Shown here: positions 1 to 51,226 of the stretch, in pieces | How positions within the stretch are numbered: position 1 is the stretch's first letter | Layout of the letters: the number at the start of each line of letters is the position of its first letter | Origin: Bacteroidota bacterium | GTDB lineage: Bacteria > Bacteroidota > Bacteroidia > Bacteroidales > NBLH01 | Length of the DNA: 64,000 nucleotides | Reading direction: 5' to 3' | Assembly (NCBI GenBank): GCA_039714415.1 | Contig: JBDLJL010000001.1 | Span: forward strand, 23,172 to 87,171 | Notes under the pieces: model-generated | Database searches by the model: none | Told to the model about the DNA's origin: nothing | What the model saw: the letters and a program-made list of their open reading frames with translations, nothing else | Translations under genes and position numbers: made by a program

Positions 1-660
1 TATTTTAATACGTCGGCCATTTAATTCGATATATTTATCTGATTTAAACTCAGATAGAAGACGGATGACAGATTCGGTTGCAGTACCTACCAAATTGGCC
101 AACTCCTCCCTTGTAAGACTAACTTGCAAATATTTTTCATCGTCAAGTAAAAATGTATCTTTTAAAAGGATTAACACCTCTGCTAGTCTTTCTCTAACTG
201 TTTTTTGAGCAATGTCAATGATAAATTTATTCGCTTCACCCAATTCCTTTAATGAAAGTTTCATTATTTGCATGGAAAAGTCACTGTTTTCTTTAATCAA
301 ATTAAAAAATAAGTTGGCAGGAATAAAACATAGAACAGCATCTTCAATTACTTTTGCTGTTGTGCAAGCAAGTTCCTGGCTAAGAATTGAACGATAACCG
401 ATTATATCTCCCTTTTGGGCAAACCTGATAATTTGCTCTCTTCCATCTATTCCCGTTTTAAAGAGTTTTATAACACCCTGGCTTATACAGTATACACCAC
501 TTATCCGGTTTCTTTCCTGATAGATAATGTTCCCTCTTTTATAAAAGTTACACCCTTTCTCGAAGGTAAGAATGTTTAATTCATCCTTTGTAAGATTGCT
601 AAAAAGTGGATTAATATTAAAGCAATCGCCACAAGCTGGAATATTTTCTAGATTTCTCAT
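1..660 (-). CDS. Crp/Fnr-family transcriptional regulator (C-terminus runs off the left edge of the window)
   Basis: This ORF is absent from the track because it has no stop codon in the window. My reverse-strand translation from the ATG at 660-658 reads MRNLENIPACGDCFNINPLFSNLTKDELN...GDIIGYRSIL...TVRERLAEVLILL...LTREELANLVGTATESVIRLLSEFK. That is a cNMP-binding-type beta-roll followed by a Crp-type HTH. The frame stays open for 220 codons to position 1. Confidence 0.8.
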   Translation of the reverse strand, partial: MRNLENIPACGDCFNINPLFSNLTKDELNILTFEKGCNFYKRGNIIYQERNRISGVYCISQGVIKLFKTGIDGREQIIRFAQKGDIIGYRSILSQELACTTAKVIEDAVLCFIPANLFFNLIKENSDFSMQIMKLSLKELGEANKFIIDIAQKTVRERLAEVLILLKDTFLLDDEKYLQVSLTREELANLVGTATESVIRLLSEFKSDKYIELNGRRIKI

Positions 661-890: not shown

Positions 891-1310
891 ATGAAAGATT
901 CAATTACAGCTAGTTGGAAAAAAAAAATGGCTTTTGAAGTTGAGGTTGCTGGTCATAAAATTATGATAGATGCAACCGATAACGTAGGTGGCGAAAATAG
1001 AGGCCCGCAACCTAAACCTATGATGCTAGTTGCTCTTGGTGGGTGCACGGCAATGGATGTAATCTCAATTTTAACCAAAATGCGTGTAGAATTAGATGAC
1101 TTCCAGGTAAAAGTAGAAGGTGATTTAACTGAAGAACATCCAAAACACTTCCATAAAATGAAGGTAATTTATGAATTCACAGGGAAAAATCTTCCTATGG
1201 AAAAATTAAAAAAAGCAATTAGCCTTTCCGAGGAAAGATATTGTGGTGTTAGTGAAAGCTATCGAAAGGCAATGGAGCTTAGCTCTGAAATTATCGTACA
1301 CGAATCATAG
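891..1310 (+). CDS. OsmC/Ohr-family peroxiredoxin-like protein
   Basis: 139 aa. GPQPKPMMLVALGGCTAMDVISIL and EERYCGVSESY carry the two conserved Cys contexts typical of the OsmC family. Confidence 0.85.
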   Translation: MKDSITASWKKKMAFEVEVAGHKIMIDATDNVGGENRGPQPKPMMLVALGGCTAMDVISILTKMRVELDDFQVKVEGDLTEEHPKHFHKMKVIYEFTGKNLPMEKLKKAISLSEERYCGVSESYRKAMELSSEIIVHES

Positions 1311-1366: not shown

Positions 1367-1651
1367 TCTATTTTCTGGACTGCAATATTTTTTAGTCATC
1401 ACATTTTCCGCAGAATCGAGATGTTTATATGATCTGGTTTTAAATTATAATCTGGTTTTTGTTGTGCTGATGCCGGTAGCTCAATTATAATATATAGTAG
1501 AAATACTTTTGTCAATCTGCACATTATTAGAGTACTAAAAGATTAAAAAATTGCAGTAATTGAACATGAAAATTTTTTAAACATATAATTAAAAACTTGA
1601 AAGCTTATTTTTCAATGTCAATAATGTGACAATTTGTTCTATTATTTCTTG

Positions 1652-1659
1652 TATATTTG
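1652..1659 (+). promoter_or_regulatory. -7 box TATATTTG upstream of the DUF2461 gene
   Basis: Exact TAnnTTTG match, 22 bp before the ATG at 1682. Confidence 0.45.
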
Positions 1660-1681
1660 AGTAAAATTAAAGAATAAGAAC

Positions 1682-2344
1682 ATGGAATTTGAAAGGCTTT
1701 TAAAGTTTTTAAAAAAATTAAAGGAAAATAATAACCGTGACTGGTTCAATGATCATAAAAAAGAATTTGTTGAACTGAAAGAACAATTTGAAATTCTTAT
1801 CAACCAGTTAATTCCAAAAATAAAACAACTTGACGGGTTTAATGGTTCTTTATCTGCAAAGGACTGTATTTTTAGAATATACAGAGATGTACGATTTTCA
1901 AAAAACAAACAGCCTTATAAAACCCATTTTGGGGCTTATTTAGCCGATGGCGGAAGAAAAAGCCCTTTTGCAGGTTATTATGTTCATATTGAACCCGAAG
2001 GATCATTTGCCGGTGGGGGAGTATATCATCCGGAATCTGCTGTCTTAAAGGAACTCCGTTATGAAATAATGGACAAAACAGATGAGTTTAAGGATATAAT
2101 TTCGACACCTGGTTTTAAAAAAGTTTATCCTGAAATATATGGTGAAAAACTTAAAAGTGCACCCAGAGGCTTTCCTAAGGATTTTAAAGATATTGAACTT
2201 TTAAAGCTTAAAAGTTATGCTTTGGTACATACAATTGATGATGATATGATTAAATCACCTGATTTTGTAGACTACCTACTGAATTTGTATAAAACAGCCA
2301 AACCATTTAATTCATTTTTTAACAAAGTAATATCTGAACTTTAA
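1682..2344 (+). CDS. DUF2461 (TIGR02453) family protein
   Basis: 220 aa. NNNRDWFNDHKKEF and FRIYRDVRFSKNKQPYKTHFGAY are hallmark motifs of this family as I recall them. Confidence 0.8.
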   Translation: MEFERLLKFLKKLKENNNRDWFNDHKKEFVELKEQFEILINQLIPKIKQLDGFNGSLSAKDCIFRIYRDVRFSKNKQPYKTHFGAYLADGGRKSPFAGYYVHIEPEGSFAGGGVYHPESAVLKELRYEIMDKTDEFKDIISTPGFKKVYPEIYGEKLKSAPRGFPKDFKDIELLKLKSYALVHTIDDDMIKSPDFVDYLLNLYKTAKPFNSFFNKVISEL

Positions 2345-2355: not shown

Positions 2356-3363
2356 ATGAATTACGAAAATTCCAGTGAAAAGGAAACAGAAAGTTTAGAA
2401 AATAACATCGATAGTTCTTTTTTAAATGATGTGTTAGAAGGCCTTTCGTCCAGTCAAAAATTTCTTTCTTCAAAATATTTTTATGATGATGCTGGAAGCA
2501 GGCTTTTTGAGAAAATAATGCAACATCAAGATTACTACCTTACTAATTGTGAACATGAAATATTTAATCAGCAAAAAAAGGCAATTAAGGAAGCGTTTTA
2601 TCAAAGCCCGGAAGGATTTAATCTGATTGATCTGGGCTCAGGTGATGGATTTAAAACAAAAATTCTACTTGAGCATTTTTATAAAAATGAAGTTCCTTTT
2701 CGATATATTCCGGTTGATATTTCTGAAAAGCCTACTATTAAGCTGGTAAATGAGCTTAAAAATCGTTTTCCAAATTTGATGGTAGAAGAACAAATTGGTG
2801 ATTATTTTCAAATATTGAGTTCTTTAAACCTGAATACCTATAAGAAAAAAATTGTACTATTCTTGGGATCCAATATTGGAAATTATGGTTATGAAGGGAG
2901 TCTTGATTTTTTAAAATCGGTAAGAAAGGTCCTAATACCTGGTGATAAATTATTTATAGGATTTGATTTGAAAAAAGACCCCAAAGTGATTCTTAAAGCG
3001 TATAATGATAAAGCAGGTTATACTGAAGAATTTAATCTTAACTTGTTGGGTAGAATAAACAGGGAGCTTCATGCTAATTTTGATATCGGATCTTTTATTC
3101 ACTACCCGGTTTACGATCCCAAAAGTGGTGCAGCAAAAAGTTATTTGGTGAGTGTAAAAAAGCAGGTAGTAAGTTTTGGAGAACGGGATTTAAGTTTTGA
3201 GTTTGATAAATGGGAACCTGTTTTCATGGAAATTTCCCAAAAATATGATTTAGAAATGATTCAGGAAATGGCCAATATGAGCGGTTTTAAAGTACAAAAA
3301 AACTTTTTTGACAATCGCCATTTCTTTGTTAATTCTTTGTGGGAAGCAGTAAACCCTCATTGA
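2356..3363 (+). CDS. egtD: L-histidine N-alpha-methyltransferase (EgtD-like, hercynine-forming)
   Basis: 335 aa. It has KYFYDDAGSRLFEKI...DYYLTNCE, the DLGSGDGFKT SAM motif, FLGSNIGNY, AYNDKAGYTEEFNLNLLGRINREL and EISQKY, colinear with EgtD family proteins. Confidence 0.8.
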   Translation: MNYENSSEKETESLENNIDSSFLNDVLEGLSSSQKFLSSKYFYDDAGSRLFEKIMQHQDYYLTNCEHEIFNQQKKAIKEAFYQSPEGFNLIDLGSGDGFKTKILLEHFYKNEVPFRYIPVDISEKPTIKLVNELKNRFPNLMVEEQIGDYFQILSSLNLNTYKKKIVLFLGSNIGNYGYEGSLDFLKSVRKVLIPGDKLFIGFDLKKDPKVILKAYNDKAGYTEEFNLNLLGRINRELHANFDIGSFIHYPVYDPKSGAAKSYLVSVKKQVVSFGERDLSFEFDKWEPVFMEISQKYDLEMIQEMANMSGFKVQKNFFDNRHFFVNSLWEAVNPH

Positions 3364-3441
3364 GGGATTTTATATAAGATTCAAATAATTGATTTTAATA
3401 TATTGGACTGATTTCTAGTTCTGTAAAATCACTTTTTTTAG

Positions 3442-6400
3442 ATGAAAAATATTACAAAAAAGGCAATCTGTGGTATTTGTCCGGCAGGTTGCTGGGTTAA
3501 GGTAACTTATGGTGACGATGGAAAAATGGTTAAAGTTGAAGAAGACGATACTTCACCATTGGGTGCAATTTGCAAATTTGGAAAACATGCACCCGAAATT
3601 GTTTATTCAGAAAATAGGCTCCGCTATCCCATGAAACGTGTTGGCCCAAAAGGGGATTATAAATTTGAAAGAATTAGCTGGGATGAAGCCTATGATATAA
3701 TTGTAAAGAAACATTTTGAAATTAAAGAAAACTATGGTGCTGAAGCAACAGCAATATACACTGGCCGTGGTAGCTTTGAATTGGCTTTATGCGATTTGTT
3801 CCAGCCAAAAGATGTGGCTATTTCATCAGCTTCAAGTGTATTATTTCCGTTTGGCTCGCCAAACACCTTAGGTGTTGGTGCTTTATGTTATGTTTCTTTT
3901 GCAATGATAGCCCCTCATGTCACCATGGGTGGGATGTATCATTATATGTTTCCTGATACCGATAATGCTGAAATGGTAATTATCTGGGGTGCTAATCCAG
4001 CAACAGATACACCACCAAATAGTTATAAAAAAGTATTGGAGGCTCACGGTCGCGGTGCTAAAATTGTAGTAATTGACCCTAGAAAAACAGCAGTGGCAAA
4101 GCTTGATGGTGTTGATTGGTTACCACTTAGGCCGGGAACTGATGGTGCCCTGGCATTAGGTTTATGCAATATTTTAATCAGGCAGGATCTTTATAACAAA
4201 AGTTTTGTTGAAGAATGGACAGTTGGCTTTGAAAATTTTTCACGATATGCACAACAATTTAGACCTGAAGTTGTAGAACAAATCACAGGAGTACCAGCTG
4301 AGAAAGTAGAAGAGCTAGCTATTGCTATTTCTGAATTAAACGGGGTTGCACCATTGATGTACACCGGGTTGGAATATACAAATAGTGGTGTTCAAAATAT
4401 CCGGGCAACATTTATTTTATGGGCACTTGCCGGACAGTTAGATGTTCCGGGCGGTTATTGTTTTGCCATGCAGGAAAACCAATTTCAGGTTAATAGGGAT
4501 GGTTTGATCCCTAATCCTGATGAGACAAAAGCACTGGGAAGGGACAGGTTTCCTGTTTACAGTCAGTATCGTGGCGAATCACATGCTATATCATTACCGG
4601 AATCTGTTTTGGAAGGGAAACCCTATAAAATAAGATCATTAATTATTCATGGTGCATCCATTATTACTGCCTGGCCTCAGCCTGAAATTTGGAAAAAGAC
4701 TTTAAACGAATTGGATTTTGTAGTAACTATTGATCGGCAGCTTACAGCAGATGCCGCATATGCAGACATTGTACTTCCGGCAACTACTATGTTTGAGATT
4801 CAATCCTATATGAAATATGGTCCTCTTTTCAGGATTCGTGAAAAAGTTATTGACCCTGTTGGTGAAGCTCGTAATGATTTCCTTATCATGGCTGAGTTAG
4901 CAAAGCGGTTGGGTTATGGACACCTGTATCCGCAAACAGAAGATGCGGTAATTGAGCAGGCTCTTAAGGGTTCTGGTTTTAGTTTTGATGATTTAAAAGA
5001 AAATAATGGAATCATTAAGCAGAAAACTGCCCCCATGGAATATAAGAAATGGGAAAAAGGAAAACTGCGAGCTGATAAACAACTCGGATTTGATACCCCA
5101 AGTGGAAAGTTTGAGATTGAATCATTAATACTTGAAGAACATGGATACGATGCGTTACCTGTTTATACAGACCCGGTAGAAGGTCCTGTATCTCAATTGA
5201 GTTTGACAAAAAAATACCCTCTTGTTTTTAATTCCGGTGCGCGGGTAAGTACTGATTTTCGTTCACAACATCACGGGATACAATCTTTATATAAACAAAG
5301 GCCGGAACCTACAGTAACCATAAATACAAAGGATGCAAAAGAAAGGGATATCACAAATGGTGAGCTTGTTTATGTTATTACCAAGCGTGGCAAAGTAAAA
5401 TTGAGAGCGTTGGTTACGGAGGATATTGTCCAGGGAGCTATTGATGCAAATATGGGAGGAGGTACACCTGTTGGACCTAAATCCTGGCAGGATTGTAATA
5501 TTAATGAGTTAACAGATTTAAATAACTTCGACCCTATTTCCGGATTCCCTGTTTATAAAGCATTATTATGCGATGTGCAAAAAGTATCTGGTTTATCTAA
5601 TAAATTATTTATTGATGCCGGCGAAATAGATGCCGATGAACTAAAAATTAATATCCAGGAACAGCCCGTTAAAAGAATATATCTTGATAATAATGCAACT
5701 ACTCCTATGAGTGACGAAGTAAAGCAAGTGATTATTAACAATATAGACAAGTTTGGTAACCCATCAAGTATTTATAAAGAAGGAAAGGAAGCTAAAAAAG
5801 AATTGGAGGCTGCTAGGCGCAAAATAGCACAATTATTAAATACTACATCCCGCAGAATTACCTTTACCAGTGGTGGATCGGAAGCAAATAATTATGCAAT
5901 TAAAGGAGTTGCATTTCAGAATTTTGGTGGGAAAAACCATATTATTACCTCAAAGATTGAACACTCTTCAGTAATAAATACATGTAAATGGCTTGAAGGA
6001 ATTGGATTTCAGGTTACTTATTTAGATGTTGATGCTGATGGTCTGGTAAGGAAAGAAACCCTTAAAAAAGCAATTACTCCCGAAACCTGTCTGGTGAGTA
6101 TTATGTTGGCCAATAATGAAACCGGAAGCATCCAGCCAATAATTGATTTGGTCGAAATTGCCCATCAGCATAATATTATTTTTCATACTGACGCTGTTCA
6201 GGCTATTGGGAAAATACCTGTTAACATACAAGAACTGGGTATTGATATATTAAGCATGTCTGGGCATAAACTTTATGCGCCAAAAGGTGTGGGTGCGTTA
6301 TTTATTAGATCTGGACTCGAGTTAGAACCATTAATTAGTGGGGGGAAACAAGAGTTCTCGCAACGTGGTGGAACTGAAAACTTATTGAATATTATGGCTT

Positions 6401-6825
6401 TAGGTAAAGCTGCAGAGATGGCCATTCGGGATAAAGACCAATTAAATGAGTTAGAAAATAATCGTGATTTTTTGGAAACCGAAATTATAAAACTAATACC
6501 AAAAATAATGGTTAACTCAGGCAAAGTAGAAAGGCTTCCCAATACTTTAAGTATTACTTTTCCTGATATCAGGGCTGAGTCATTACTGTTGGAAATGGAT
6601 AAACAGGGTGTTAGTTTTTCATCGGGTTCTGCTTGTAGGTCTGGCTCTCCAAAGCCTTCATACGTTCTTCTTTCCATGGGAAAATCCGAGGATGAGGCTC
6701 ATAGGTCAGCGCGTTTTTCATTAGGTTTTGGAAATACAAGGGAAGATTTAATTATCACGATAAATCTACTTAAAAAAACCCTTGAAAACGCAACAGAGAA
6801 TATCCGTTTTATGGCTTGCAGATAA
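3442..6825 (+). CDS. Fusion of a molybdo/tungstopterin oxidoreductase and a cysteine desulfurase (metallopterin-dependent ergothioneine synthase-like)
   Basis: 1127 aa. The N-terminus carries the CGICPAGC Fe-S motif and a bis-PGD oxidoreductase body (about aa 1-735). The C-terminal module (about aa 745-1127) is NifS/IscS-like: RIYLDNNATTP, the PLP Lys in SGHKLYAPKG (codon 6268-6270) and the catalytic Cys in SSGSACRSG (codon 6634-6636). Confidence 0.75.
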   Translation: MKNITKKAICGICPAGCWVKVTYGDDGKMVKVEEDDTSPLGAICKFGKHAPEIVYSENRLRYPMKRVGPKGDYKFERISWDEAYDIIVKKHFEIKENYGAEATAIYTGRGSFELALCDLFQPKDVAISSASSVLFPFGSPNTLGVGALCYVSFAMIAPHVTMGGMYHYMFPDTDNAEMVIIWGANPATDTPPNSYKKVLEAHGRGAKIVVIDPRKTAVAKLDGVDWLPLRPGTDGALALGLCNILIRQDLYNKSFVEEWTVGFENFSRYAQQFRPEVVEQITGVPAEKVEELAIAISELNGVAPLMYTGLEYTNSGVQNIRATFILWALAGQLDVPGGYCFAMQENQFQVNRDGLIPNPDETKALGRDRFPVYSQYRGESHAISLPESVLEGKPYKIRSLIIHGASIITAWPQPEIWKKTLNELDFVVTIDRQLTADAAYADIVLPATTMFEIQSYMKYGPLFRIREKVIDPVGEARNDFLIMAELAKRLGYGHLYPQTEDAVIEQALKGSGFSFDDLKENNGIIKQKTAPMEYKKWEKGKLRADKQLGFDTPSGKFEIESLILEEHGYDALPVYTDPVEGPVSQLSLTKKYPLVFNSGARVSTDFRSQHHGIQSLYKQRPEPTVTINTKDAKERDITNGELVYVITKRGKVKLRALVTEDIVQGAIDANMGGGTPVGPKSWQDCNINELTDLNNFDPISGFPVYKALLCDVQKVSGLSNKLFIDAGEIDADELKINIQEQPVKRIYLDNNATTPMSDEVKQVIINNIDKFGNPSSIYKEGKEAKKELEAARRKIAQLLNTTSRRITFTSGGSEANNYAIKGVAFQNFGGKNHIITSKIEHSSVINTCKWLEGIGFQVTYLDVDADGLVRKETLKKAITPETCLVSIMLANNETGSIQPIIDLVEIAHQHNIIFHTDAVQAIGKIPVNIQELGIDILSMSGHKLYAPKGVGALFIRSGLELEPLISGGKQEFSQRGGTENLLNIMALGKAAEMAIRDKDQLNELENNRDFLETEIIKLIPKIMVNSGKVERLPNTLSITFPDIRAESLLLEMDKQGVSFSSGSACRSGSPKPSYVLLSMGKSEDEAHRSARFSLGFGNTREDLIITINLLKKTLENATENIRFMACR

Positions 6826-7032
6826 ATGTGGGCATAGAATTTGAACTCAGTAATTATGAATTTTTTGAAATTAAATCGCAAGTAATCATTAATAATTGAA
6901 AACATGGTTAAATTGTCATATTGCTAAATTGTTTTCGTCAAAAATTTAACAAATTAGAAATATTTCAGAGAAGCTACTGCAGGTGTGCCTTTGTTTAGGC
7001 ATTGTAGATTTTGTAAATTCAGGCTTTGGTAT

Positions 7033-7461
7033 TTAATTATGAATATGAAGAGAGCCCATATTGGGATTATAATCAACAGCATATTGCATTAAGGATAGCC
7101 CTGCAGGGCCGTTTGTTACCATACCATCTAATACTAATGAAAATTGTGAACCGCATACAGTATCTTTTGCAGAAATCCCACTTGATTCAATAACCACTTT
7201 CCCCCATTCATGCTCTGGATCATAAGTGCATGTAGCATCATATGCAGAAAATTTTTCAAAACTGGATCTTGTCACAATAATTCCTTTATTTCCTTCGTAT
7301 GGTATATATACTGAACCACCAACTGTGTTTAATGGCAAGTAAGATGGATTTATATAAATAGTGAAATTGACATAAACTTTTGGTACAGGGTTATTATTTT
7401 CACATGTTGAAAAAAGTCCAATTAAAAACAACGATAGAAAAATTAGTATTATCTTTGACAT
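7033..7461 (-). CDS. Hypothetical lipoprotein
   Basis: 142 aa. It has a signal peptide ending in FSTC (lipobox-like). I recognised no family. Confidence 0.5.
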   Translation of the reverse strand: MSKIILIFLSLFLIGLFSTCENNNPVPKVYVNFTIYINPSYLPLNTVGGSVYIPYEGNKGIIVTRSSFEKFSAYDATCTYDPEHEWGKVVIESSGISAKDTVCGSQFSLVLDGMVTNGPAGLSLMQYAVDYNPNMGSLHIHN

Positions 7462-7480
7462 AGGTATTACAATTGTATTT

Positions 7481-7948
7481 ATGAGCGCAAATTTAGTATT
7501 TTTAAATATATTTATTCTTATTTGTTGTAATATTAGTTCTACTGGTTTTGCACAGAAGGAAAAACCCCTGTCTGAGAGTAACGATCCGATTAGAGAAAGT
7601 ATTGCCCGAAAAGAACATAAACTTGATGGGATGAACCTAACAGAAAAAGAATTTAACTATTTACAAAGGATTAATGAAAAATATAGGCTTACCGGTAAGG
7701 AACAAAAATTGAGAAGAAGTTACAGGGACACACTTAATATAAAAGGAAGATTTGGATTGGCTCGTTCATATAGGAAGGAGTATGTTATGACAAAAAAAGT
7801 TGAAAAGTTTCGCAAGAAAAAGTTTGAGAGTATTCAAAATAAAGAAACCATAATAAGGATGCATGAAAAAGAAAAAAGGGCTAAAAAAAGGTATCGAAGA
7901 GAAAAAAGGAAGGCTCGTAAAAGGAAATTCTTAAATTTATTTAAATGA
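7481..7948 (+). CDS. Hypothetical secreted, highly basic K/R/E-rich protein
   Basis: 155 aa with an N-terminal signal-like segment and a KKRYRREKRKARKRK tail. I recognised no homolog. Confidence 0.4.
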   Translation: MSANLVFLNIFILICCNISSTGFAQKEKPLSESNDPIRESIARKEHKLDGMNLTEKEFNYLQRINEKYRLTGKEQKLRRSYRDTLNIKGRFGLARSYRKEYVMTKKVEKFRKKKFESIQNKETIIRMHEKEKRAKKRYRREKRKARKRKFLNLFK

Positions 7949-8009
7949 TTGGTTGACTTTTATTAAAGAATAGTTAACTTTGTAAAGTACTTTATCAAAA
8001 TACCGGCAT

Positions 8010-10457: not shown

Positions 10458-11342
10458 TTAATATTCCCAAAGGTCTTGCTCAAAATTAAAAATACTTTCT
10501 TTAATGCGATCTGCTTCAAGTAGGGACTCTAAACCGATTGTGTAAGCTTGAATTGTTCTATTATTATAGGCATTTGATTCCTGAACAATGTAGCTTGAGA
10601 AATAACGTTTGAAGAATACATCATCAAATGATTTTCTTTCTGCATCATTATTGGGGTTAAAAACCTCATGACTAGCTAATATTTTTCTTGCCTCAGGGAA
10701 ATATACCCAAAACAGTTTTTTCTTTTTGATATTTTCATATCCTTCTTCATCATCTTCTTCATCATCCAAACTCTCTCTGGTAAATTCACGAACCGGGCAA
10801 AGGCCAATAACTCGCACGTCTAATACTGAACGTTGTTTATCAAAAAACCACATTTCTTTTACCAGGAATCTTTTTACTTCAGAAGTACTGTAGGTTCCCT
10901 CAATAGTAGTTTCTATCATGGGTCCATCCGGATCTTCAACATCCTCTACCATTACTACTTCATCCTGGGCGCCAAATTTGTCTTCAATTTCCTTCACGGT
11001 CATTACTGTAGCAAATTCATCGCCCTCTGATTCATCATATGCAGTTAAACCTTGGTTTTGCACACCCCACATCAATAAAGAAATAAGGCTCATTCGGTCA
11101 CCGATTGGAACCTCAGGATAATATAAAGGATGGTTCATTTTTTCCTTTAACTGAATTTCCCGCCATATAATTTTTGACCACATCACATCAGCTTCACGCA
11201 GATATTGATATGGAACCGGTTTTCTGTTCCTTGTCTTTTCTTTTATAAAAACACCGTTAAGAACATCTTGTGCATTTAAACCATCTGGACTAAATACTAT
11301 TACAAATAGCAGAATGATTGAAAATAATCCTTTTGTCTTCAT
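10458..11342 (-). CDS. gldN: Gliding motility / T9SS protein GldN (PorN)
   Basis: It is the last gene of the gldKLMN order. I prefer the ATG at 11342 (MKTKGLFSIILLFVIVF signal peptide) over the longer track ORF starting at 11420. Confidence 0.85.
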   Translation of the reverse strand: MKTKGLFSIILLFVIVFSPDGLNAQDVLNGVFIKEKTRNRKPVPYQYLREADVMWSKIIWREIQLKEKMNHPLYYPEVPIGDRMSLISLLMWGVQNQGLTAYDESEGDEFATVMTVKEIEDKFGAQDEVVMVEDVEDPDGPMIETTIEGTYSTSEVKRFLVKEMWFFDKQRSVLDVRVIGLCPVREFTRESLDDEEDDEEGYENIKKKKLFWVYFPEARKILASHEVFNPNNDAERKSFDDVFFKRYFSSYIVQESNAYNNRTIQAYTIGLESLLEADRIKESIFNFEQDLWEY

Positions 11343-11431
11343 CAGTTTATTTATTAAGTTACTACCTTTTCTCCTTTTATAGGATTCTTTTGGAAAGCAG
11401 TATAGGCTACTGCTTTCCATTTGCTACACTG

Positions 11432-12976
11432 TTATTTCAATTTAAATGATATTGCACCCAAATTCCTGGTTGTTCCATCAGGACCTTTAGCTCTAATATC
11501 TGAGATTAACACCTTTCTTTTACTTGGTATTTTTTTAATCAGTTGCCTTTGTTGTGCCGTAAAACGTGCTCCATTAGAACGGGCTTCCTCTTCATACCCT
11601 TTTATGGTAGCAGAAATAGTAAAACTTGTAACATTATATCTTAATGCAAAATCAAAGTTTTCCAAATCAGCTTTTACACCTGACTGGGCTGTTAGCCAGT
11701 TTTTAGAAACTGTACCTCTTTTTTTGCCACCCACTTTTGCAATTGGATCCGGTACTCTTTTTACACGAAATTCCTTGGAACCCATGTTCTTTCCATCTGC
11801 TGTTGCACTTACACGTACTTTACCGACCTTCTTTACTTTAACAACATAACTGTTCCCTTTTCTACGGATACTTCCGCTTGATATCCTGGCTTGAAGTTTA
11901 CTAGGATCAATACCTGGAACAGATACATCTACCGGGTTATCTACACCTATATAAAATACATTCATTTTCGTGGGTGATACAACTAATTGAGCTACGCCAA
12001 CAGTATATTCACTTTTAAAATGATACTGCTTTATTTCTTTTGTTTCAGGATTAACCAACTCAATTACACCGCCCCAGGATTTAACACCGGCAGAACCTGT
12101 ATTACCTGTAAACATACCTTTACCCTCTTTTACGGGTAAAGTAGAACCTCCGTTTAGTTTAATCACTGGTTTAACTGTTGAGTCAGAAGCAGCAATAAAT
12201 ACTTCTGCAGTATAAGGCTGTCCTTTTAACACATAATTTGTTGGCGAGTTAACAATGGCCTCAACTTTATTAAATTTATAATCACTAGCACTAATTTTTC
12301 CAAATAAGTAGCCTAAAATATCAGCTTCAGCATTTCGCACATCAGCTTGCATTTTTGTCATTAGCGTAATAACACCTGCTAAGGGCAAATGATCGAAGTT
12401 TGCCGTTTGCCAGGGCACCATATTATTTTCAAGGCCAAGAATATCATCAGTATTTAAATTATTTTTAATACTTGATATTACAGGCATGTACAATGTTGAA
12501 TCTTTTCCGACAATGGTAATAAGAGATTCCTTATATGCCTCAATTCTTTCTTTTAAATGGGTGGCACGATTTTTACCATCCACTTTTTCCTTGATCATCC
12601 TTTGACCCGGGATATTTACATTATCTTTTGATTGAATACTATCAGCACGTCCTTCAGGGCCATCAGCTGTAGTAACAATTAATTGTTTTAAAGTATCAAT
12701 ATAGTCAAATAGTTCTTTTGAGCTAATTTTTACGCCATCTGCTTTATCTTTCCATGGTTTAACCGCTGCTTCATTGTCTTCCATAGACTTATTAAACTCA
12801 TTATAAACAGCATTGTTCTTCTTTTCTGAGTTTGCAGTCGTGGTCCTTAAACTGTTGTCAATTAACAAAAAGGCATTAAGAACTTCAGCAGAAACATTCA
12901 ACGCAAGCAAAGCAGTCAGCACCAGGTACATCATACCTATCATTTTTTGCCGTGGGCTTTCTTTTCCGTGTCCCAT
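11432..12976 (-). CDS. gldM: Gliding motility / T9SS protein GldM (PorM)
   Basis: 514 aa. The N-terminus MGHGKESPRQKMIGMMYLVLTALLALNVS matches the conserved GldM start (PRQKMI..MYLV...L.A.NVS). Confidence 0.9.
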   Translation of the reverse strand: MGHGKESPRQKMIGMMYLVLTALLALNVSAEVLNAFLLIDNSLRTTTANSEKKNNAVYNEFNKSMEDNEAAVKPWKDKADGVKISSKELFDYIDTLKQLIVTTADGPEGRADSIQSKDNVNIPGQRMIKEKVDGKNRATHLKERIEAYKESLITIVGKDSTLYMPVISSIKNNLNTDDILGLENNMVPWQTANFDHLPLAGVITLMTKMQADVRNAEADILGYLFGKISASDYKFNKVEAIVNSPTNYVLKGQPYTAEVFIAASDSTVKPVIKLNGGSTLPVKEGKGMFTGNTGSAGVKSWGGVIELVNPETKEIKQYHFKSEYTVGVAQLVVSPTKMNVFYIGVDNPVDVSVPGIDPSKLQARISSGSIRRKGNSYVVKVKKVGKVRVSATADGKNMGSKEFRVKRVPDPIAKVGGKKRGTVSKNWLTAQSGVKADLENFDFALRYNVTSFTISATIKGYEEEARSNGARFTAQQRQLIKKIPSKRKVLISDIRAKGPDGTTRNLGAISFKLK

Positions 12977-13018
12977 AATTCTTCAGATTTAAATTAAAAT
13001 AAAAAATTCAGATAATAA

Positions 13019-13930
13019 TTAGTCATTAAGGTTAACATTCATTGCAGAAAGCATGTTTCCGTAAATGTTATTTAATGATTCTAAGCGGTTACCCAGTTTT
13101 TTAATTTCGGTATGATATTTTCTTGATTCAGTAACGGAACCATTAAGGTCTTCCATCATTTTATCAAGGTCAGCCTCATTTAACTGAAGTTCAAAAATAG
13201 CGTTTAAAGCAGTTAGGTTTTTATTCAACACATCAACCTGACCACTGTATTTGTCATTTCCTTCTTTAAGTGCAGAGAAATCAATATCCATAGCATCTGT
13301 TAAGCGCTCATAAGCTGATATAAAGTTTCCACCTTTTTCTGTAACCTGTTGTGCAGATTTAGCATAAGAATCAGATAAATTCTCAAGAGAGTAACTTAAC
13401 GATTCTGCTGATTGTTTGTATGACTCAGAAGATCCTCTGTATGCTTCAGAAAGTTCATTAACAGAACCGGAAGCACTCTTCATGTTATTGGTAAATTCAT
13501 TAGTTGCCATAGCTGCATCTGAAATATTAGCCATATCATTAACCCTTTCGTTAAGATTGGTAATACCGTCACCTAACTTACTAAATAGGTCAGCCCCACC
13601 AGCTTTTTCAAGCATGTCATCAAATTTAGCCAAAGCTTCACCTGAAGATTTTGGACCAGAACTTGCAATTTCTATTTCGTCATCATCGTCAAGCCCTGCT
13701 AATTGAGGATAAACAAGTGTCCAGTCAATTTCTTCATGTAAAGGTTCAAAAGCAGAAAAGAAGAAAATTATTGCTTCCGTACCAAGTCCAGCCATAAGCA
13801 TTTGGTCGGCAAAAGGCCAGTGTAATATTTTAAATAATGCACCAATAATTACAACTGAAGCTCCCCAGCCATATAATTTTGCCATGAAATTTTTCCATGC
13901 ATGCGATTGAGTTAATTGAGCAAGTCCCAT
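13019..13930 (-). CDS. gldL: Gliding motility / T9SS protein GldL (PorL)
   Basis: 303 aa. It has two N-terminal TM helices with the conserved GASVVIIGALFKILHWP and GLGTEAIIFFFSAFEP segments, then a coiled-coil tail. Confidence 0.9.
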   Translation of the reverse strand: MGLAQLTQSHAWKNFMAKLYGWGASVVIIGALFKILHWPFADQMLMAGLGTEAIIFFFSAFEPLHEEIDWTLVYPQLAGLDDDDEIEIASSGPKSSGEALAKFDDMLEKAGGADLFSKLGDGITNLNERVNDMANISDAAMATNEFTNNMKSASGSVNELSEAYRGSSESYKQSAESLSYSLENLSDSYAKSAQQVTEKGGNFISAYERLTDAMDIDFSALKEGNDKYSGQVDVLNKNLTALNAIFELQLNEADLDKMMEDLNGSVTESRKYHTEIKKLGNRLESLNNIYGNMLSAMNVNLND

Positions 13931-14027
13931 ATCATCTAATAGTTTAAATTAATAAATTAAATTGAATTGAATTGATTTTTGAAGCTAAATATATATATAA
14001 AGATTGAATATTAAAAATATACAGAGA

Positions 14028-15431
14028 TTAATTAAACTTACTGAAGTCCCAGTCAGCACCATCACGTCCCATGAATGACCTTACACATCGGAAACCAACA
14101 TAAGATTTTGCTGTGTCCTGATATTCATAAGTTCGCGTAGCTACCTGCATATAATAACCAATATCTTTCCATGAGCCACCACGGATTACTTTCCTTTTAA
14201 GAACAGGTGGGTCGTCAGCAAGTGCATTATATACATAATCGGGATTCAGGTCATGTGTAAAGCTGTATGCTGATTCATCAAATGCATTTGATGTCCATTC
14301 AGCAACATTACCGGCCATATCATATAATCCCCATTCATTTGGTGAGAATAAAGCAACTTCAATAGTCTCGTTTGAACCATCACTACCATAGTCGCCCCTT
14401 AGAGGTTTAAAGTTTGCAATAAAACAACCAGTATTATTTCTCGAGTATGGACCACCCCATGGATACATTGAAAGCATAAGACCACCACGAGCAGCATACT
14501 CCCACTCAGCTTCGGTAGGTAATCTATAATCCTGGAACGGAACACTTCTTTTTTGAGCCATATAGTTTCTCATTAACTGAGTACGCCATATACAAAATGC
14601 ATTTGCTTGTTTCCAGGTTACCCCAACAACAGGATAGTTGTCAAAGGCAGGGTGCCAGAAATAACTTTTGGCATAGGGTTCGTTATAAGAATAAGTGTAA
14701 TCAGCCATCCAAACTAATGTATCAGGATAAACATCAATTTTAGCTGACATAACAAAAGAGGAGCGGTCTTTAATTGCTTCTTTTTCACCTTTACTGTTAA
14801 TAATTTCACCGTTATATTCACCACCGGTATAGTCATCATTAAAGTTATAACGGTTTGTTTTTTTCGCAGCCTGTTTTAGGTCTACCCAATAATATTCATA
14901 AATTAATTTTCGGGAATCTACTTCTTTTCTTCTGTAAAAGCGTTCGTGTTGCGCAAGGAATATATCTTTAATTGCATCTATATACTCTTCATCTTCGCTA
15001 TTCCACTGAATTTCTGTTTCCCAATTCAAATAACAGGTTTCAGGATCATCGTGGTCATAGCCATCATATGCAATCTCCTCGTTCATTTCAGCTTTATAAC
15101 CTTCGATATCATTTCTTACCAACATCCTTCTGGTTAATGAATCACGTACCCAAAAAACAAATTGTCTGTATTCGTTATTTGTAATTTCGGTAATATCCAT
15201 CCAGAAAGGGTCAATAGATACCGTTTTTGATTGTGCCGTAAGTGCAAACGGAACATCCTGATCATTAGGACCCATAATGAATGAACCCATTGGAATAAAT
15301 GCCATACCATATGGATCTGGTTCATAAAAATCTTTCCTGTCTGGAACTCCAACTAACTCACCTTGCGGCCCTTTGTTTTTGCAGCTTGCGAACATTAATA
15401 CTACCAAGCTAAAAAGAATCAATTTTTTCAT
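14028..15431 (-). CDS. gldK: Gliding motility / T9SS lipoprotein GldK (PorK), FGE-sulfatase-fold
   Basis: I prefer the ATG at 15431 (MKKLILFSLVVLMFASC lipobox) over the TTG at 15458. Motifs: RLPTEAEWEYAARGG and RGGSW...RCVR. Confidence 0.9.
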   Translation of the reverse strand: MKKLILFSLVVLMFASCKNKGPQGELVGVPDRKDFYEPDPYGMAFIPMGSFIMGPNDQDVPFALTAQSKTVSIDPFWMDITEITNNEYRQFVFWVRDSLTRRMLVRNDIEGYKAEMNEEIAYDGYDHDDPETCYLNWETEIQWNSEDEEYIDAIKDIFLAQHERFYRRKEVDSRKLIYEYYWVDLKQAAKKTNRYNFNDDYTGGEYNGEIINSKGEKEAIKDRSSFVMSAKIDVYPDTLVWMADYTYSYNEPYAKSYFWHPAFDNYPVVGVTWKQANAFCIWRTQLMRNYMAQKRSVPFQDYRLPTEAEWEYAARGGLMLSMYPWGGPYSRNNTGCFIANFKPLRGDYGSDGSNETIEVALFSPNEWGLYDMAGNVAEWTSNAFDESAYSFTHDLNPDYVYNALADDPPVLKRKVIRGGSWKDIGYYMQVATRTYEYQDTAKSYVGFRCVRSFMGRDGADWDFSKFN

Positions 15432-15468
15432 ATCATCAAACCTTAATTTTATTGCCAATGCTGTTTAT

Positions 15469-16401
15469 TTACAAAAATCTAACACTTCTATATTTTTGAG
15501 GTGCTTTATCAAAACCAATGTTGAAACAATAACCTAGCATAATTTCATGACTTCCATCATTGGTATTTATTAATTTTGAGAAATTTAAACCGTAAGCATA
15601 ACCGATTTTTATTCCGTTGAACAATTCAATGCCTGCCATTACATCTATTGCATCAGTTGTTCTATAAGAAACGCCGCCCCAGAATTTTTTATTGTATACG
15701 GCCATCATATTAATTGTTATTTGTGCTGAAGCAGCATCTGATTTTATTAATAAATTGGGTTTCAAATCAAGATTACTACCTGAAAGCTGTATATTGTAAC
15801 CTGCCATTAAATAATAATGTCTTTTTAAATGGGATTGTTCCGTATTTGTGAATTTAAATTTGGGTTGTGTAAGATGAGTTGCAGATAAACCTACAAATAA
15901 ATCACCTGCTGTATATGCCATTCCAAATGCCAGGTCTAAAACCATACTATTGTCTTTTTCTGCAGGAATTGCCGGGTCAGTATCAGCAGAAGTTTCTGGT
16001 GTAACCCAGGTTCCATCATATGCAATGTTATAGATTCCACCTTCAACACCCAGGCGAAGTGTTCCTGCACCCAAATTACGGGAATATGCATATTGAAGGC
16101 TTCCCCTGAAATTGTTTTCAAAACCCAAACGGTCGTCCATAAGTGAAATGCCAACACCACTGTTTATACCCAAAAGGTTAAGCGGGGCATTTGCATTAAA
16201 AGCAGTTGTTTTAGGAGCCCCTTCAAATCCCAGCCATTGTTGGCGATTTATAATACCTACACAGATATCACCTTCGCTACCGGCAAATGCCGGATTTAAT
16301 TTTACTTTATCAAAAAAGACATGGCTTAATATTGGATCTTGCTGGGCACTTATATTTGTTAGGCTATACAATAGCGCAAATAATAGTATAAGCGGCCTCA
16401 T
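15469..16401 (-). CDS. PorP/SprF-family T9SS outer-membrane beta-barrel protein
   Basis: It lies immediately upstream of gldK. The PorP/SprF signature is present (QQDPILSHVFFDKVKLNPAFAG ... final RFL). I prefer the ATG at 16401 (MRPLILLFALL signal). Confidence 0.85.
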   Translation of the reverse strand: MRPLILLFALLYSLTNISAQQDPILSHVFFDKVKLNPAFAGSEGDICVGIINRQQWLGFEGAPKTTAFNANAPLNLLGINSGVGISLMDDRLGFENNFRGSLQYAYSRNLGAGTLRLGVEGGIYNIAYDGTWVTPETSADTDPAIPAEKDNSMVLDLAFGMAYTAGDLFVGLSATHLTQPKFKFTNTEQSHLKRHYYLMAGYNIQLSGSNLDLKPNLLIKSDAASAQITINMMAVYNKKFWGGVSYRTTDAIDVMAGIELFNGIKIGYAYGLNFSKLINTNDGSHEIMLGYCFNIGFDKAPQKYRSVRFL

Positions 16402-23308: not shown

Positions 23309-24223
23309 ATGAACAAAATTGTTGAAAATGCCAGGGAAGCAATAGCCGATAAAAAGTAATTGTACAATCATGTTAGGTGGTTTTGGGCTGTGCGGAATAC
23401 CGGAAAACTGTATTAATGCTATGACAAAAACCGATATCAACGGTTTAATTTGCATATCAAATAATGCAGGTGTGGATGATTTTGGTCTTGGATTATTATT
23501 AAAAAAATATCAGATAAAAAAAATGATTTCATCATATGTAGGTGAAAATAAAGAGTTTGAACGGCAACTTTTGAGCGGGGAACTCCAGGTTGATTTAATT
23601 CCTCAAGGAACATTGGCAGAAAGAATAAGGGCTGGTGGAGCAGGTATTCCGGCAGAATATGGCACAGAGGTAGCTGATGGAAAAGAAGTAAGAGATTTTA
23701 ATGGGAAAATGGCTTACTGGGAATTGGACCTTTTCCGCAAAAGGAAGAAGTCTCGGCGGATTTGATAAATGCCGGTAAACAAACAGTAACAACTGTTCCG
23801 GGTGCTTCCTTTTTTGATTCGGCGACCAGTTTTGCTATGATTCGTGGCGGACATGTTGATTTAACTGTGTTGGGTGCTTTTGAAGTTAGTGAAAAGGGTG
23901 ATATTGCCAGTTGGAAAATTCCAAAAAAAATGGTTAAGGGCATGGGAGGGGCTATGGATTTGGTTGCTTCTGCAAAAAATATTATAGTTGCTATGCAACA
24001 CACTAATAGGAGCGGTGAATCAAAACTTATTAAGGAATGTACATTACCCTTAACAGGTGTTTCTTGTGTTAAAAAAATTGTTACAGATATGGCTGTAATT
24101 GATTTAACAGATGATGGGTTTAAATTAATTGAAAGAGCGCCGGGTGTTAGTGTTGAAGATATTGTAAATGCTACTGAAGGCAAATTAATTGTTGAGGGTG
24201 AAATACCCGAAATGAGTATTTAG
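23309..24223 (+). pseudogene. Decayed scoA-scoB (3-oxoacid CoA-transferase subunits A/B) remnant
   Basis: ATG at 23309 gives [16 protein letters not shown] then a stop at 23357-23359, and the reading frame shifts in the A-run 23351-23355. ScoA homology resumes in [11 protein letters not shown]...[13 protein letters not shown]...GKEVRDFNG. It then jumps directly into ScoB sequence [11 protein letters not shown]...[11 protein letters not shown]...[11 protein letters not shown] in another frame (open from 23702). Confidence 0.75.
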
Positions 24224-38966: not shown

Positions 38967-39025
38967 TATAATGCAGCAAAATTACTTAATTATTTGTTAA
39001 TGTTAAGCATGTCAATATTTTTTTC

Positions 39026-39033
39026 TATTTTTG
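39026..39033 (+). promoter_or_regulatory. -7 box TATTTTTG upstream of hppA
   Basis: Exact TAnnTTTG match, 33 bp before the ATG at 39066. This supports that start over 38961. Confidence 0.5.
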
Positions 39034-39065
39034 CGCAGTTTTTAAACCTAAATCGATATTATATT

Positions 39066-48365: not shown

Positions 48366-48619
48366 TTAATAGAATTTAGATGTATAACAAATTTTTACAA
48401 AGGTTGATAAAAAAAGACTTTTACGCTAATTAAGTGCTAAATATTCATGGCAATCTCATATAAAATAATGCACAATATTTTGCACATATTATATTTATAG
48501 AAATTTCAATGATGTATTTTTTTGACGAGCATTGAAAAAAATTCATTCTACGAATATGATAGTTGAGTAAATACAGCGAACCGAGATTTTATACTAATTA
48601 AGTGTTTGTCCATAAAGTC

Positions 48620-48866
48620 CGCTATCTTCGTTATGCTTGTCCTTAAAATGGTCATTTACGGTAGTAAATTCACATTTTTCAGACTGCACAAGCCTTGATA
48701 GCAAACTTTCTGAACGAAACACTGACATTATAGACAGATTCTAATTGTCCCTTAGAAAACGCCAATTTACACGTTGAACTTGTGTTGAAAACAGCCATTT
48801 ACAATAGTAAATTCCTTGATTTTCATAACTTCGTTAGCCTTGACTTTGACGATTTCTAAAAGACAA
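48620..48866. repeat. Two tandem degenerate copies of the MITE-like repeat family
   Basis: The hairpin cores TCATTTACGGTAGTAAATTC (48651-48670) and CCATTTACAATAGTAAATTCC (48794-48814), plus flanks such as CTTCGTTA.GC, AAGCCTTGATAG and CGATTTCTAAAAGACAAC, align with the 17878-17998 element. Confidence 0.55.
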
Positions 48867-50025: not shown

Positions 50026-50077
50026 AGATAAACTTTAAAGTATATAAAAAAGAAAACATTATTAACCAATAACTTAA

Positions 50078-51216: not shown

Positions 51217-51226
51217 ACTTGTTATT

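Follow-up and report, generated by a model that had tools for sequence, protein, structure and literature searches.

Gene organization of the locus

The window, a 64-kb stretch of low-GC (~33%) DNA, belongs to a Bacteroidota metagenome-assembled genome with T9SS/gliding genes. Near its start lies an egtD homolog followed by a gene for a two-module fusion protein, assigned here to the metallopterin-dependent ergothioneine synthases (MES) by comparison with the Caldithrix abyssi enzyme (CaMES). Both open reading frames, the second of 1127 codons 78 bp downstream of the first, are present as the initial annotation described them, and a coordinate check gave a gap of exactly 78 nt. The EgtD motifs quoted there were located at residues 41, 169, and 215 (nt 2476, 2860, and 2998), CGICPAGC begins at residue 10 of the fusion, and the codons named for the PLP Lys and the persulfide Cys read AAA (Lys943, within SGHKLY) and TGT (Cys1065, within SGSACRSG). 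The module borders proposed at residues ~1-735 and ~745-1127 are consistent with the Pfam domain spans. A DUF2461 gene on the plus strand, absent from that annotation, also lies at the locus, where the features are:

<1..660, minus strand: Crp/Fnr-type gene (cNMP_binding and HTH_Crp_2), cut by the window start
891..1310, plus strand: OsmC gene (Pfam)
1610..1681, plus strand: candidate promoter region of DUF2461-egtD-MES, conserved between the window and sister species L059
1682..2344, plus strand: DUF2461/TIGR02453 gene, 220 aa (Pfam DUF2461, 1.5e-74)
2356..3363, plus strand: egtD homolog, 335 aa; predicted SAM-dependent L-histidine N-alpha-trimethyltransferase, by Pfam, NCBIfam, and structure matches
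3364..3441, plus strand: egtD-MES spacer, 78 nt, without a conserved element
3442..6825, plus strand: MES fusion gene, 1127 aa in one polypeptide, by identity to CaMES, homologs, and tree
3442..5562, plus strand: MES N-terminal bis-MGD (Mo/W) module, aa 1-707, by Pfam and acetylene hydratase 2E7Z
codons 3469, 3478, 3490, and 3571, plus strand: Fe4S4 cysteines C10, C13, C17, and C44 of the N-module
3886-3888, plus strand: predicted metal-ligand Cys149 of the N-module, by alignment with CaMES and 2E7Z
5563..5676, plus strand: inter-module linker, aa 708-745, poorly conserved, starting with invariant Cys710
5677..6822, plus strand: MES C-terminal NifS/IscS-type PLP cysteine desulfurase module, aa 746-1127, by Aminotran_5 and NifS models
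6268-6270, plus strand: PLP-Lys943, by residue mapping to CaMES
6634-6636, plus strand: persulfide Cys1065, by residue mapping to CaMES
6703-6705, plus strand: Arg1088 (CaMES Cys1097 position), by residue mapping
6817-6819, plus strand: penultimate relay Cys1126, by residue mapping to CaMES

Relationship of the fusion protein to MES enzymes

Pfam assigns Molybdop_Fe4S4 (aa 6-56), Molybdopterin (aa 59-489, 7e-42), and Molydop_binding (aa 601-707, 2.5e-18) to the N-module and Aminotran_5 (aa 746-1103, 2.5e-75) to the C-module. Against CaMES, translated from C. abyssi DNA, the fusion aligns over its full length at 62.9% identity (1130 aligned residues, 1521 bits). Identity to the other three experimentally active MES enzymes is 55-56%, and CaMES itself shares 58.5-62.9% with those three, no more than it shares with the window protein. 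A tree places the fusion among the active enzymes, nested inside a clade bracketed by the four with demonstrated ergothioneine production, and the ligand Cys, whose conservation had been proposed as a check, is kept. NCBI nevertheless names the protein "IscS subfamily cysteine desulfurase" because its score on NF002806 (306.1 bits) exceeds the cutoff of 304.

Mutation of C153, K952, C1074, or C1135 abolishes CaMES activity (PMC9516567). By alignment these residues correspond to C149, K943, C1065, and C1126, all of which are kept, and the latter three are each conserved in all of the 120 full-length homologs found at 60-71% identity. The Fe-S cysteines C10, C13, C17, and C44 (CaMES C14, C17, C21, and C48), together with Cys149, are invariant in 118-120 of these sequences. 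The homolog alignment also contains long invariant stretches in the N-module, a linker consensus that is mostly "x", and Cys710 in 120/120. The sole difference among the key residues compared is Arg1088 in place of CaMES Cys1097. The MES paper (PMC9516567) called this residue "strictly conserved" and applied it as a filter for Table S1, which the window protein would not have passed. Among the 120 homologs this position is Cys in 115, Arg in four, and Ser in one, the Arg state reappearing in a small Bacteroidota/Kapaibacteria subgroup. As a C1097S substitution in CaMES causes only a 2-fold loss (PMC9516567), the residue is dispensable there.

Of 80 related loci, 58 place an EgtD gene on the same strand beside MES; among the remaining 22, contig ends truncate 14. 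In P0002, the nearest relative, egtD likewise precedes MES. Judged on sequence, the fusion is thus an MES ortholog in domain architecture, essential residues, and gene linkage, which bears out the MES-type architecture originally claimed for it.

The EgtD homolog

The EgtD assignment likewise holds. The protein, named L-histidine N(alpha)-methyltransferase by NCBI (MEN8118716.1), matches Pfam Methyltransf_33 at 1.7e-93, and its top solved-structure matches by phmmer are EgtD 7SCF/4PIM (~5e-40, 140 bits). Its top NCBIfam model is TIGR03438 (egtD), on which it scores 276.4 bits, slightly under the cutoff of 290.9; of eight further MES-linked EgtDs, seven reach 299-356, whereas the EgtD beside P0002 also falls below the cutoff. 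Nine of ten histidine-contact residues of Mycolicibacterium smegmatis EgtD are kept: Y43, F51, Y60, G171, N176, Y216, T223, E292, and S294 correspond to Y39, F47, Y56, G161, N166, Y206, T213, E282, and S284. Eight of these nine are invariant in 55 MES-linked EgtDs. The tenth, M252, is Ser262 in the window protein; the position is not conserved, and four other MES-linked EgtDs also carry Ser. An M252V/E282A double mutant of EgtD reportedly shifts toward tryptophan.

Gene neighborhood and candidate promoter

The DUF2461 gene stops 11 nt upstream of egtD and is probably co-transcribed with egtD-MES. It is lineage-specific and lies outside the conserved part of the MES system: among the 80 loci, DUF2461, OsmC, and Crp/Fnr genes accompany egtD-MES only in L059, and DUF2461 was not found beside MES in the inspected neighborhoods of P0002, P0004, and P0006. 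The "redox-stress neighborhood" suggested by the initial annotation from the Crp/Fnr and OsmC genes is weak because these genes recur in one sister species only. A terminator-like hairpin follows the OsmC gene on its 3' side and FNR/CRP-like boxes occur at background frequency, leaving the functional link unsupported.

Between osmC and DUF2461, positions 1610..1681 form the only stretch well conserved between the window and L059. It contains the palindrome TGTCA-N6-TGACA at 1616-1631, a TTTG element, and, at 1652-1659, a -7 box of the Bacteroidota type, TATATTTG. Its reading as the promoter region of DUF2461-egtD-MES is suggestive only, because such motifs turn up often in DNA as AT-rich as this and the conservation was seen in two sequences. 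The 78-nt egtD-MES spacer lacks a TAnnTTTG box, has as its sole hairpin a weak 5-bp one overlapping the egtD stop, and does not align with L059, in which the two genes almost abut.

Proposed pathway and alternative readings

The locus very likely encodes an MES-type route to ergothioneine that needs two enzymes and no O2. First, EgtD (2356-3363) would transfer methyl groups from three SAM to the alpha-amino nitrogen of L-histidine, producing trimethylhistidine (TMH, hercynine); the fusion (3442-6825) would then place sulfur on C2 of the TMH imidazole ring. The reaction and the sulfur relay are taken from work on CaMES (PMC9516567), as is the Mo(VI)=S / Mo(IV) cycle that it proposes. Transferred to the window protein, the C-terminal PLP module (Lys943) would move sulfur from L-cysteine to a persulfide on Cys1065, from which it would pass within one polypeptide to penultimate Cys1126 and on to the N-terminal bis-MGD Mo/W centre, with Cys149 as predicted ligand and a neighboring Fe4S4 cluster on Cys10/13/17/44. 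Attack of TMH on the metal-sulfido species would release ergothioneine, and the reduced metal would then be re-sulfurized. We infer that the fusion protein is active, that DUF2461-egtD-MES forms a single transcript, and that the organism makes both the Mo/W cofactor and ergothioneine; within the 64-kb window, no molybdopterin-biosynthesis or Mo/W-uptake genes were found.

A different product is very unlikely. An MES-like C-S bond-forming enzyme could yield one if the methyltransferase betainylated another amino acid or the metallopterin module sulfurized another heterocycle, as the MES paper speculates for related Mo enzymes (PMC9516567), and the sub-cutoff EgtD scores in the window and beside P0002 and the unconserved M252 position (Ser262) would fit. 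However, E292, T223, and the remaining imidazole/carboxylate contacts are intact and invariant across the 55 MES-linked EgtDs, Ser recurs at the 252 position in other MES-linked EgtDs, the EasF model scores far lower (146 bits vs a cutoff of 205.55), and the fusion is 63% identical to CaMES with long invariant N-module stretches. The database name, the 2-bit excess on NF002806, and the Fdh-alpha and PhsA E-values (1e-80 to 1e-86) would suit a housekeeping IscS/NifS desulfurase that serves Fe-S assembly or cofactor maturation and is joined to an oxidoreductase resembling formate dehydrogenase or thiosulfate reductase. We consider this extremely improbable, since all equivalog models score far under their cutoffs (NifS 443/531, IscS 345/643, Fdh-alpha 290/666, PhsA 271/694), the EgtD linkage is conserved, the MES-specific C-terminal ...RF-x-x-CR tail with Cys1126 is present, and full-length identity to a characterized MES is 63%, compared with the published ~27% between CaMES and ACH or DMSOR (PMC9516567).

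The K952A variant of CaMES catalyzes ergothioneine-TMH sulfur exchange, and the metallopterin step is therefore chemically reversible (PMC9516567). An enzyme working mainly in reverse to reclaim sulfur from imported ergothioneine, or shuttling sulfur between ergothioneine and TMH with no net biosynthesis, is nonetheless scarcely to be expected here: the intact desulfurase (Lys943, Cys1065) and a co-encoded, predicted TMH-forming methyltransferase fit net synthesis only, and the 64-kb window yielded neither an ergothionase gene nor one for an ergothioneine transporter. NifS/IscS-type enzymes commonly accept selenocysteine too, and the C-module gives weak matches to selenocysteine lyases (SclA 7.5e-29, 3A9X 1.3e-56), so a lyase whose gene pair makes selenoneine under some conditions was also weighed. 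The known selenoneine route runs through SenA/B/C, unrelated to MES, and the 64-kb window contains no sen genes; only GldK matches the SenA model, at 55 bits (cutoff 420). Desulfurase matches are far stronger (2.8e-92; NifS 443 bits) and characterized homologs move sulfur from cysteine (PMC9516567), which makes selenoneine production exceedingly improbable.

Comparison with known systems

The EanB (rhodanese-type) and EgtB (non-haem-iron sulfoxide synthase) routes follow the same logic as the proposed MES pathway, in which EgtD supplies TMH and a second enzyme sulfurizes imidazole C2. Both O2-requiring EgtB and polysulfide-using EanB are unrelated to MES, and profile searches found neither in the 64-kb window, where the sole FGE-sulfatase protein is GldK (574 bits, vs 44 bits on the EgtB model). 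M. smegmatis EgtD (PDB 4PIM/4PIO) shares the Methyltransf_33 fold family and nine of ten substrate contacts with the window EgtD, but has Met252 rather than Ser262 and is partnered with EgtB/EgtC/EgtE rather than MES.

Among solved structures, tungsten-dependent acetylene hydratase (ACH, PDB 2E7Z; 8e-69) is closest to the N-module; it shares the Fe4S4 cysteine pattern, and its W-ligand Cys aligns to Cys149. The catalytic Asp13 of ACH, beside the second Fe-S cysteine, is instead Pro14 (Pro in 117/118 homologs), and an additional insertion in MES, YTGRGSFELxxCD, contains invariant Cys117. ACH lacks a fused desulfurase and hydrates acetylene, whereas MES forms a C-S bond. Class-V desulfurases (Escherichia coli IscS 1P3W, Helicobacter pylori NifS 5WT2) align with the whole C-module (E 1e-77 to 1e-92), including the PLP Lys and persulfide-loop Cys. 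Unlike these, the MES C-module is fused to a metallopterin enzyme and has an additional C-terminal relay residue, Cys1126, essential in CaMES; by analogy with CaMES, sulfur delivery would be intramolecular rather than through external carriers.

The closest system is CaMES (UniProt A0A7V4WV16; Beliaeva and Seebeck, 2022, PMC9516567), with the same two-module architecture at similar length (1136 aa vs 1127 aa), the CGICPAGC Fe4S4 motif, the metal-ligand Cys within an identical GVGALCYVSFAMIAPH motif, the PLP Lys, persulfide Cys, and C-terminal tail, and a co-encoded EgtD homolog. The window lineage differs in Arg1088, its Bacteroidota host, a phylum not in Table S1 of the MES paper, and the DUF2461 gene before egtD. 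Because the fusion so closely matches the enzyme described in 2022, this genome can be recognized as a further example of a pathway that is rare and usually mis-annotated.

Identity of the gene pair

Metallopterin-dependent ergothioneine synthase (MES) provides a third route for ergothioneine sulfur insertion, one that is independent of O2. To our knowledge, MES is the only Mo/W enzyme that forms a C–S bond, and its characterization is confined to one paper. As described there, MES joins an acetylene hydratase (ACH)-like bis-MGD module and a functional cysteine desulfurase in a single fusion protein (Beliaeva and Seebeck 2022, PMC9516567). The initial annotation proposed that an EgtD homologue and a fusion of this type are encoded side by side, and both ORFs were found exactly there, on the same strand and with a 78-nt gap between them. 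Each of the peptide motifs that it quoted was also located where it had placed them. The local gene order is as follows.

Genes at the locus
<1..660, minus strand: Crp/Fnr-type regulator, cut by the window edge
891..1310: OsmC, divergent from the Crp/Fnr-type gene
1682..2344, plus strand: DUF2461/TIGR02453 gene, ending 11 nt before egtD and absent from the initial annotation
2356..3363, plus strand: egtD, 335 aa; Pfam Methyltransf_33 (1.7e-93)
3442..6825, plus strand: MES fusion, 1127 aa; in order, Pfam Molybdop_Fe4S4 (aa 6-56), Molybdopterin (59-489), Molydop_binding (601-707) and Aminotran_5 (746-1103)

Across an alignment of 1130 residues (1521 bits), the fusion protein is 62.9% identical to the Caldithrix abyssi enzyme (CaMES). 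Its identity to the other three active enzymes (EaMES, AbMES, and hvMES), for which ergothioneine production in E. coli has been demonstrated, is 55-56%, values that are lower bounds because these sequences were machine-read, with letter errors, from the supplement PDF. For CaMES, the machine-read copy was replaced by a clean translation of C. abyssi DNA, the numbering of which agrees exactly with the paper. CaMES itself shares merely 58.5-62.9% identity with EaMES, AbMES, and hvMES. An NJ tree of 124 sequences places the window protein within the clade bracketed by the four active MES enzymes.

Searches of the Protein Data Bank returned ACH (2E7Z, 8e-69) as the best match of the N-terminal module, with thiosulfate reductase and formate dehydrogenases ranking lower, and IscS/NifS as the best match of the C-terminal module. 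All function-specific NCBIfam models scored well under their cutoffs (NifS, 443 vs 531; IscS, 345 vs 643; Fdh-alpha, 290 vs 666; PhsA, 271 vs 694). The sole NCBIfam model passed by the fusion was the broad NF002806 "IscS subfamily" (306.1 vs 304), which accounts for the name under which MEN8118717.1 was deposited, "IscS subfamily cysteine desulfurase". With 62.9% identity to CaMES, the critical residues kept, and linkage to EgtD, the MES-type reading of the fusion given by the initial annotation is supported, and the window locus is very probably a MES-type ergothioneine pair of the O2-independent pathway.

Critical residues of MES

In CaMES, Cys14, Cys17, Cys21, and Cys48 are the Fe4S4 ligands, and the variants C153S (metal ligand), K952A (PLP), C1074S (persulfide), and C1135S (penultimate residue) are inactive (PMC9516567). 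The Fe4S4 cysteines are present in the window protein as C10, C13, C17, and C44 and are invariant in 118-120 of 120 homologues. Cys149, at the Mo/W ligand position, lies within the identical motif GVGALCYVSFAMIAPH and is invariant in 120/120. The PLP lysine and persulfide cysteine assigned by the initial annotation proved to be Lys943 (codon 6268-6270, in SGHKLY; CaMES K952) and Cys1065 (6634-6636, in SGSACRSG; CaMES C1074), each likewise invariant in all 120. The penultimate Cys1126 (CaMES C1135), in the protein end ...RFMACR, shows the same invariance (120/120).

One reported MES feature is missing in the window protein. The 2022 paper describes CaMES Cys1097 as "strictly conserved" and made it a requirement for listing in Table S1; a C1097S variant loses only 2-fold in activity (PMC9516567). 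At this position the window protein has Arg1088 (AHRSARFSLG vs AHCALRFSLG). Of 120 homologues, 115 have Cys here, four have Arg (the window protein P0001, P0004 from Kapaibacterium, P0010, and P0021), and one has Ser. Arg is also found in the sister species (locus L059), and Cys in the nearest homologue (P0002, 71% identity). Because C1097S keeps about half the activity, Arg1088 is not evidence against MES membership. We regard Cys1097 as a common accessory feature, the Arg variant as confirming from nature that it is dispensable, and its loss as no ground for exclusion from the MES family.

The N-terminal module resembles ACH in fold, and an alignment check of the metal-ligand position found that Cys149 matches both CaMES Cys153 and the tungsten-ligand Cys of ACH. 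An acetylene-hydratase function was nevertheless rejected, because the catalytic Asp13 of ACH, adjacent to the second Fe–S cysteine, is replaced by Pro14 in the window protein. This position is Pro in 117/118 homologues.

Two further cysteines, Cys117 (3790-3792; CaMES Cys121) in the N-terminal module and Cys710 (5569-5571; CaMES Cys714) just after it, are invariant in 120/120 MES homologues. Cys117-Asp118 lies two residues before the position aligning with ACH Ile113, within a MES-specific insertion, YTGRGSFELxxCD, that is absent from ACH. In the main text of PMC9516567, a search for Cys121 and Cys719 gave no hits. Cys117/Asp118 and Cys710 may act as the last sulfur acceptor or as the catalytic base.

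Proposed mechanism

The following scheme draws on orthology, residues, and linkage from our analysis of the window and takes its chemistry from PMC9516567, where it is tentative. By orthology with the CaMES system, EgtD would convert histidine and three SAM to trimethylhistidine (TMH). The desulfurase module would use L-cysteine to form a persulfide on Cys1065, and Cys1126, on a flexible C-terminal tail, would ferry the sulfur intramolecularly to the Mo/W centre, which has Cys149 as its ligand. TMH would then attack the metal-sulfido ligand to yield ergothioneine, and the reduced metal would be re-sulfurised. We infer that the window MES converts TMH and cysteine-derived sulfur to ergothioneine, that the cofactor is supplied, and that the genes are co-transcribed.

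EgtD homologue

The best structural relatives of METHYLTRANSFERASE, the egtD product, are EgtD 7SCF and 4PIM (about 5e-40). The substrate contacts of M. smegmatis EgtD (4PIM/4PIO) are taken to be Y39, F47, Y56, G161, N166, Y206, T213, M252, E282, and S284, and their positions were confirmed on an alignment. Nine of these ten histidine contacts are identical in the window protein (Y43, F51, Y60, G171, N176, Y216, T223, E292, and S294), and the tenth, Met252, corresponds to Ser262. Eight of the matching contact positions are invariant across 55 full-length MES-adjoining EgtDs, in which the 252 position is Met (46), Ser (4), Ile (4), or Val (1).

EgtD is the best model for the window methyltransferase, 130 bits above EasF, and its NCBI entry (MEN8118716.1) carries the name L-histidine N(alpha)-methyltransferase. 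Its score on the NCBIfam equivalog TIGR03438 (IPR035094) is 276.4 bits, under the cutoff of 290.9. The EgtD beside P0002 scores 271.3, vs 299-356 for seven other MES-linked EgtDs; on these scores, the sub-branch formed by the window EgtD and the EgtD beside P0002 is somewhat divergent.

Genomic linkage and distribution

When one genome per GTDB species was scanned, at least 278 proved to encode a MES relative, several times the 55-80 reported in 2022 (PMC9516567). From these 278, the best 80 loci were fetched. A same-strand EgtD adjoins MES in 58 of the 80 best-scoring loci, 39 times downstream and 19 times upstream. In 14 of the other 22, the contig breaks off within about 3 kb. In eight loci with intact flanks, among the best 80 of 278, EgtD is absent beside MES.

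The initial annotation placed Crp/Fnr and OsmC genes upstream, where both are indeed present, and took them to suggest a redox-stress neighbourhood. As a functional association this is not supported: DUF2461, OsmC, and Crp occur with MES in only 1/80 related loci. Together with a downstream 142-aa ORF, they recur solely in L059 (among the best 80 of 278 loci), a Bacteroidales MAG (nucleotide identity, about 84%). None of the three nearest-relative contigs repeats the arrangement (0/3). The P0002 contig has egtD–MES without DUF2461, that of P0004 the order Pyr_redox_2 oxidoreductase, MES, egtD, and that of P0006 MES alone. DUF2461, OsmC, and Crp were accordingly rejected as conserved MES partners, and the conserved unit is therefore the egtD–MES gene pair. 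The MES of L059 was also considered as a truncated pseudogene; this was rejected, the break being a 100-N scaffold gap.

In Candidatus Kapaibacterium sp. (JBKHAK010000025.1, locus L083), a 461-aa Pyr_redox_2 + Pyr_redox_dim oxidoreductase (6599-7984) ends 17 nt before MES. This genome has Arg at the Cys1097 position and EgtD 3' of MES. The pyridine-nucleotide disulfide oxidoreductase might partner MES as an ergothioneine-disulfide or persulfide reductase.

MES-bearing MAGs (loci L002-L081) include those named Nitrospira, Hyphomicrobiales, Chromatiaceae, Cyclobacteriaceae, Roseivirgaceae, Gemmatimonadota, and "Candidatus Loosdrechtia aerotolerans". The distribution of MES was stated to be exclusive to strict anaerobes (PMC9516567), a claim that may need re-examination. 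In the window, GC content at 4001-6000, inside MES, is 0.38 vs 0.31-0.33 in the flanks, and the protein is 57-66% identical to MES from very distant phyla; together these values would fit either horizontal acquisition or a strong constraint on the amino-acid sequence.

Transcription and regulation

A terminator-like hairpin lies at 1345-1361, 3' of OsmC. When the intergenic region between osmC and DUF2461 was compared with L059, conservation was good only in the ~75 nt directly preceding the DUF2461 start, a stretch that contains a Bacteroidota-type TATATTTG box. The 78-nt egtD–MES spacer is unconserved between the two. These features fit a putative single DUF2461–egtD–MES transcript. DUF2461 shares this promoter-like region in the window and L059 and is without a link to MES in the other lineages examined.

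Regulation of the cluster by the neighbouring Crp/Fnr gene is unsupported, because intergenic FNR and CRP boxes were 2-mismatch matches only, at background rate (3.6 and 0.6 per kb window-wide), and a TGTCA-N6-TGACA palindrome at 1616-1631 has lost one arm position in L059. No riboswitches or other RNA regulators passed Rfam gathering thresholds across the whole 64-kb window. A sigma-70 promoter scan gave 40 sites vs 31.4 +/- 6.4 expected and is uninformative, sigma-70 being the wrong type for Bacteroidota.

Host and remainder of the window

The host is an uncultured Bacteroidota MAG. Other window genes include gldKLMN, PorP/SprF, PorW/SprE, topoisomerase I, cell-wall enzymes, and SAH hydrolase. 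The gld run, PorP/SprF, and PorW/SprE identify the host as a Bacteroidota of the T9SS/gliding type. The window is without an oxidase or any other gene diagnostic of lifestyle, its content, apart from two H+-PPases, being of the T9SS/gliding, cell-wall, and housekeeping kinds, and no EgtB, EanB, or molybdenum-cofactor genes lie within these 64 kb.

Other features of the window
10458-16401, minus strand, and 62439-63986, minus strand: complete gldK-gldL-gldM-gldN run, with PorP/SprF and PorW/SprE
23370-23765 and 23837-24223, plus strand: ORFs of 131 and 128 aa covering CoA_trans profile positions 19-140 and 95-216
39000-41471, plus strand (823 aa), and 45133-47310, minus strand (725 aa): paralogous membrane H+-translocating pyrophosphatases, about 3.7 kb apart
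41600-44686: large ABC-2 transporter fusion, between the two pyrophosphatases
47730-55355, both strands: six-ORF block (210-554 aa) without a Pfam or NCBIfam match at E<=1e-5

One ORF (14028..15431), the sole FGE-sulfatase protein in the window, was evaluated as EgtB by its TIGR03440 equivalog score and by DinB_2 + FGE-sulfatase architecture. It was rejected (44.5 bits vs a 360 cutoff) because it is GldK/PorK (574.5 bits vs 350), within the gldKLMN run. In domain-only screens, the FGE-sulfatase domain of GldK could be mistaken for EgtB/SenA (44 and 55 bits, far under the cutoffs). The ORF pair at 23370-24223 could represent one CoA-transferase subunit that is split or frameshifted; ATG-only ORF calling may also have produced it as an artefact.

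Significance and comparison with known systems

A broader joint reading would hold that the window represents a separate Bacteroidota/Kapaibacteria branch of MES in which the relay position Cys1097 was given up for Arg, that DUF2461 was recruited to the operon of this lineage as a new accessory factor, that the gliding T9SS host is maybe not a strict anaerobe, and that Cys117/Asp118, close to where ACH has its substrate pocket, and Cys710 are possibly last sulfur acceptors or catalytic bases next to the metal. Taken as a whole, we consider this reading improbable.

The understanding of the pathway is unchanged by this locus. Its value lies in better annotation, a broader distribution, and a small point on Cys1097: Arg1088 shows that a supposedly strictly conserved residue is naturally replaceable. 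Annotation pipelines still miss MES, as the deposited name of this gene illustrates, and the number of genomes with MES relatives makes the case for a dedicated annotation model. The mesophile-looking, low-GC orthologue might also surpass CaMES in expression for structural or biotechnological work. With the documented range of MES widened to Bacteroidota, the locus is a fresh example of the known MES-type pair, from a phylum that the 2022 survey did not list (PMC9516567).
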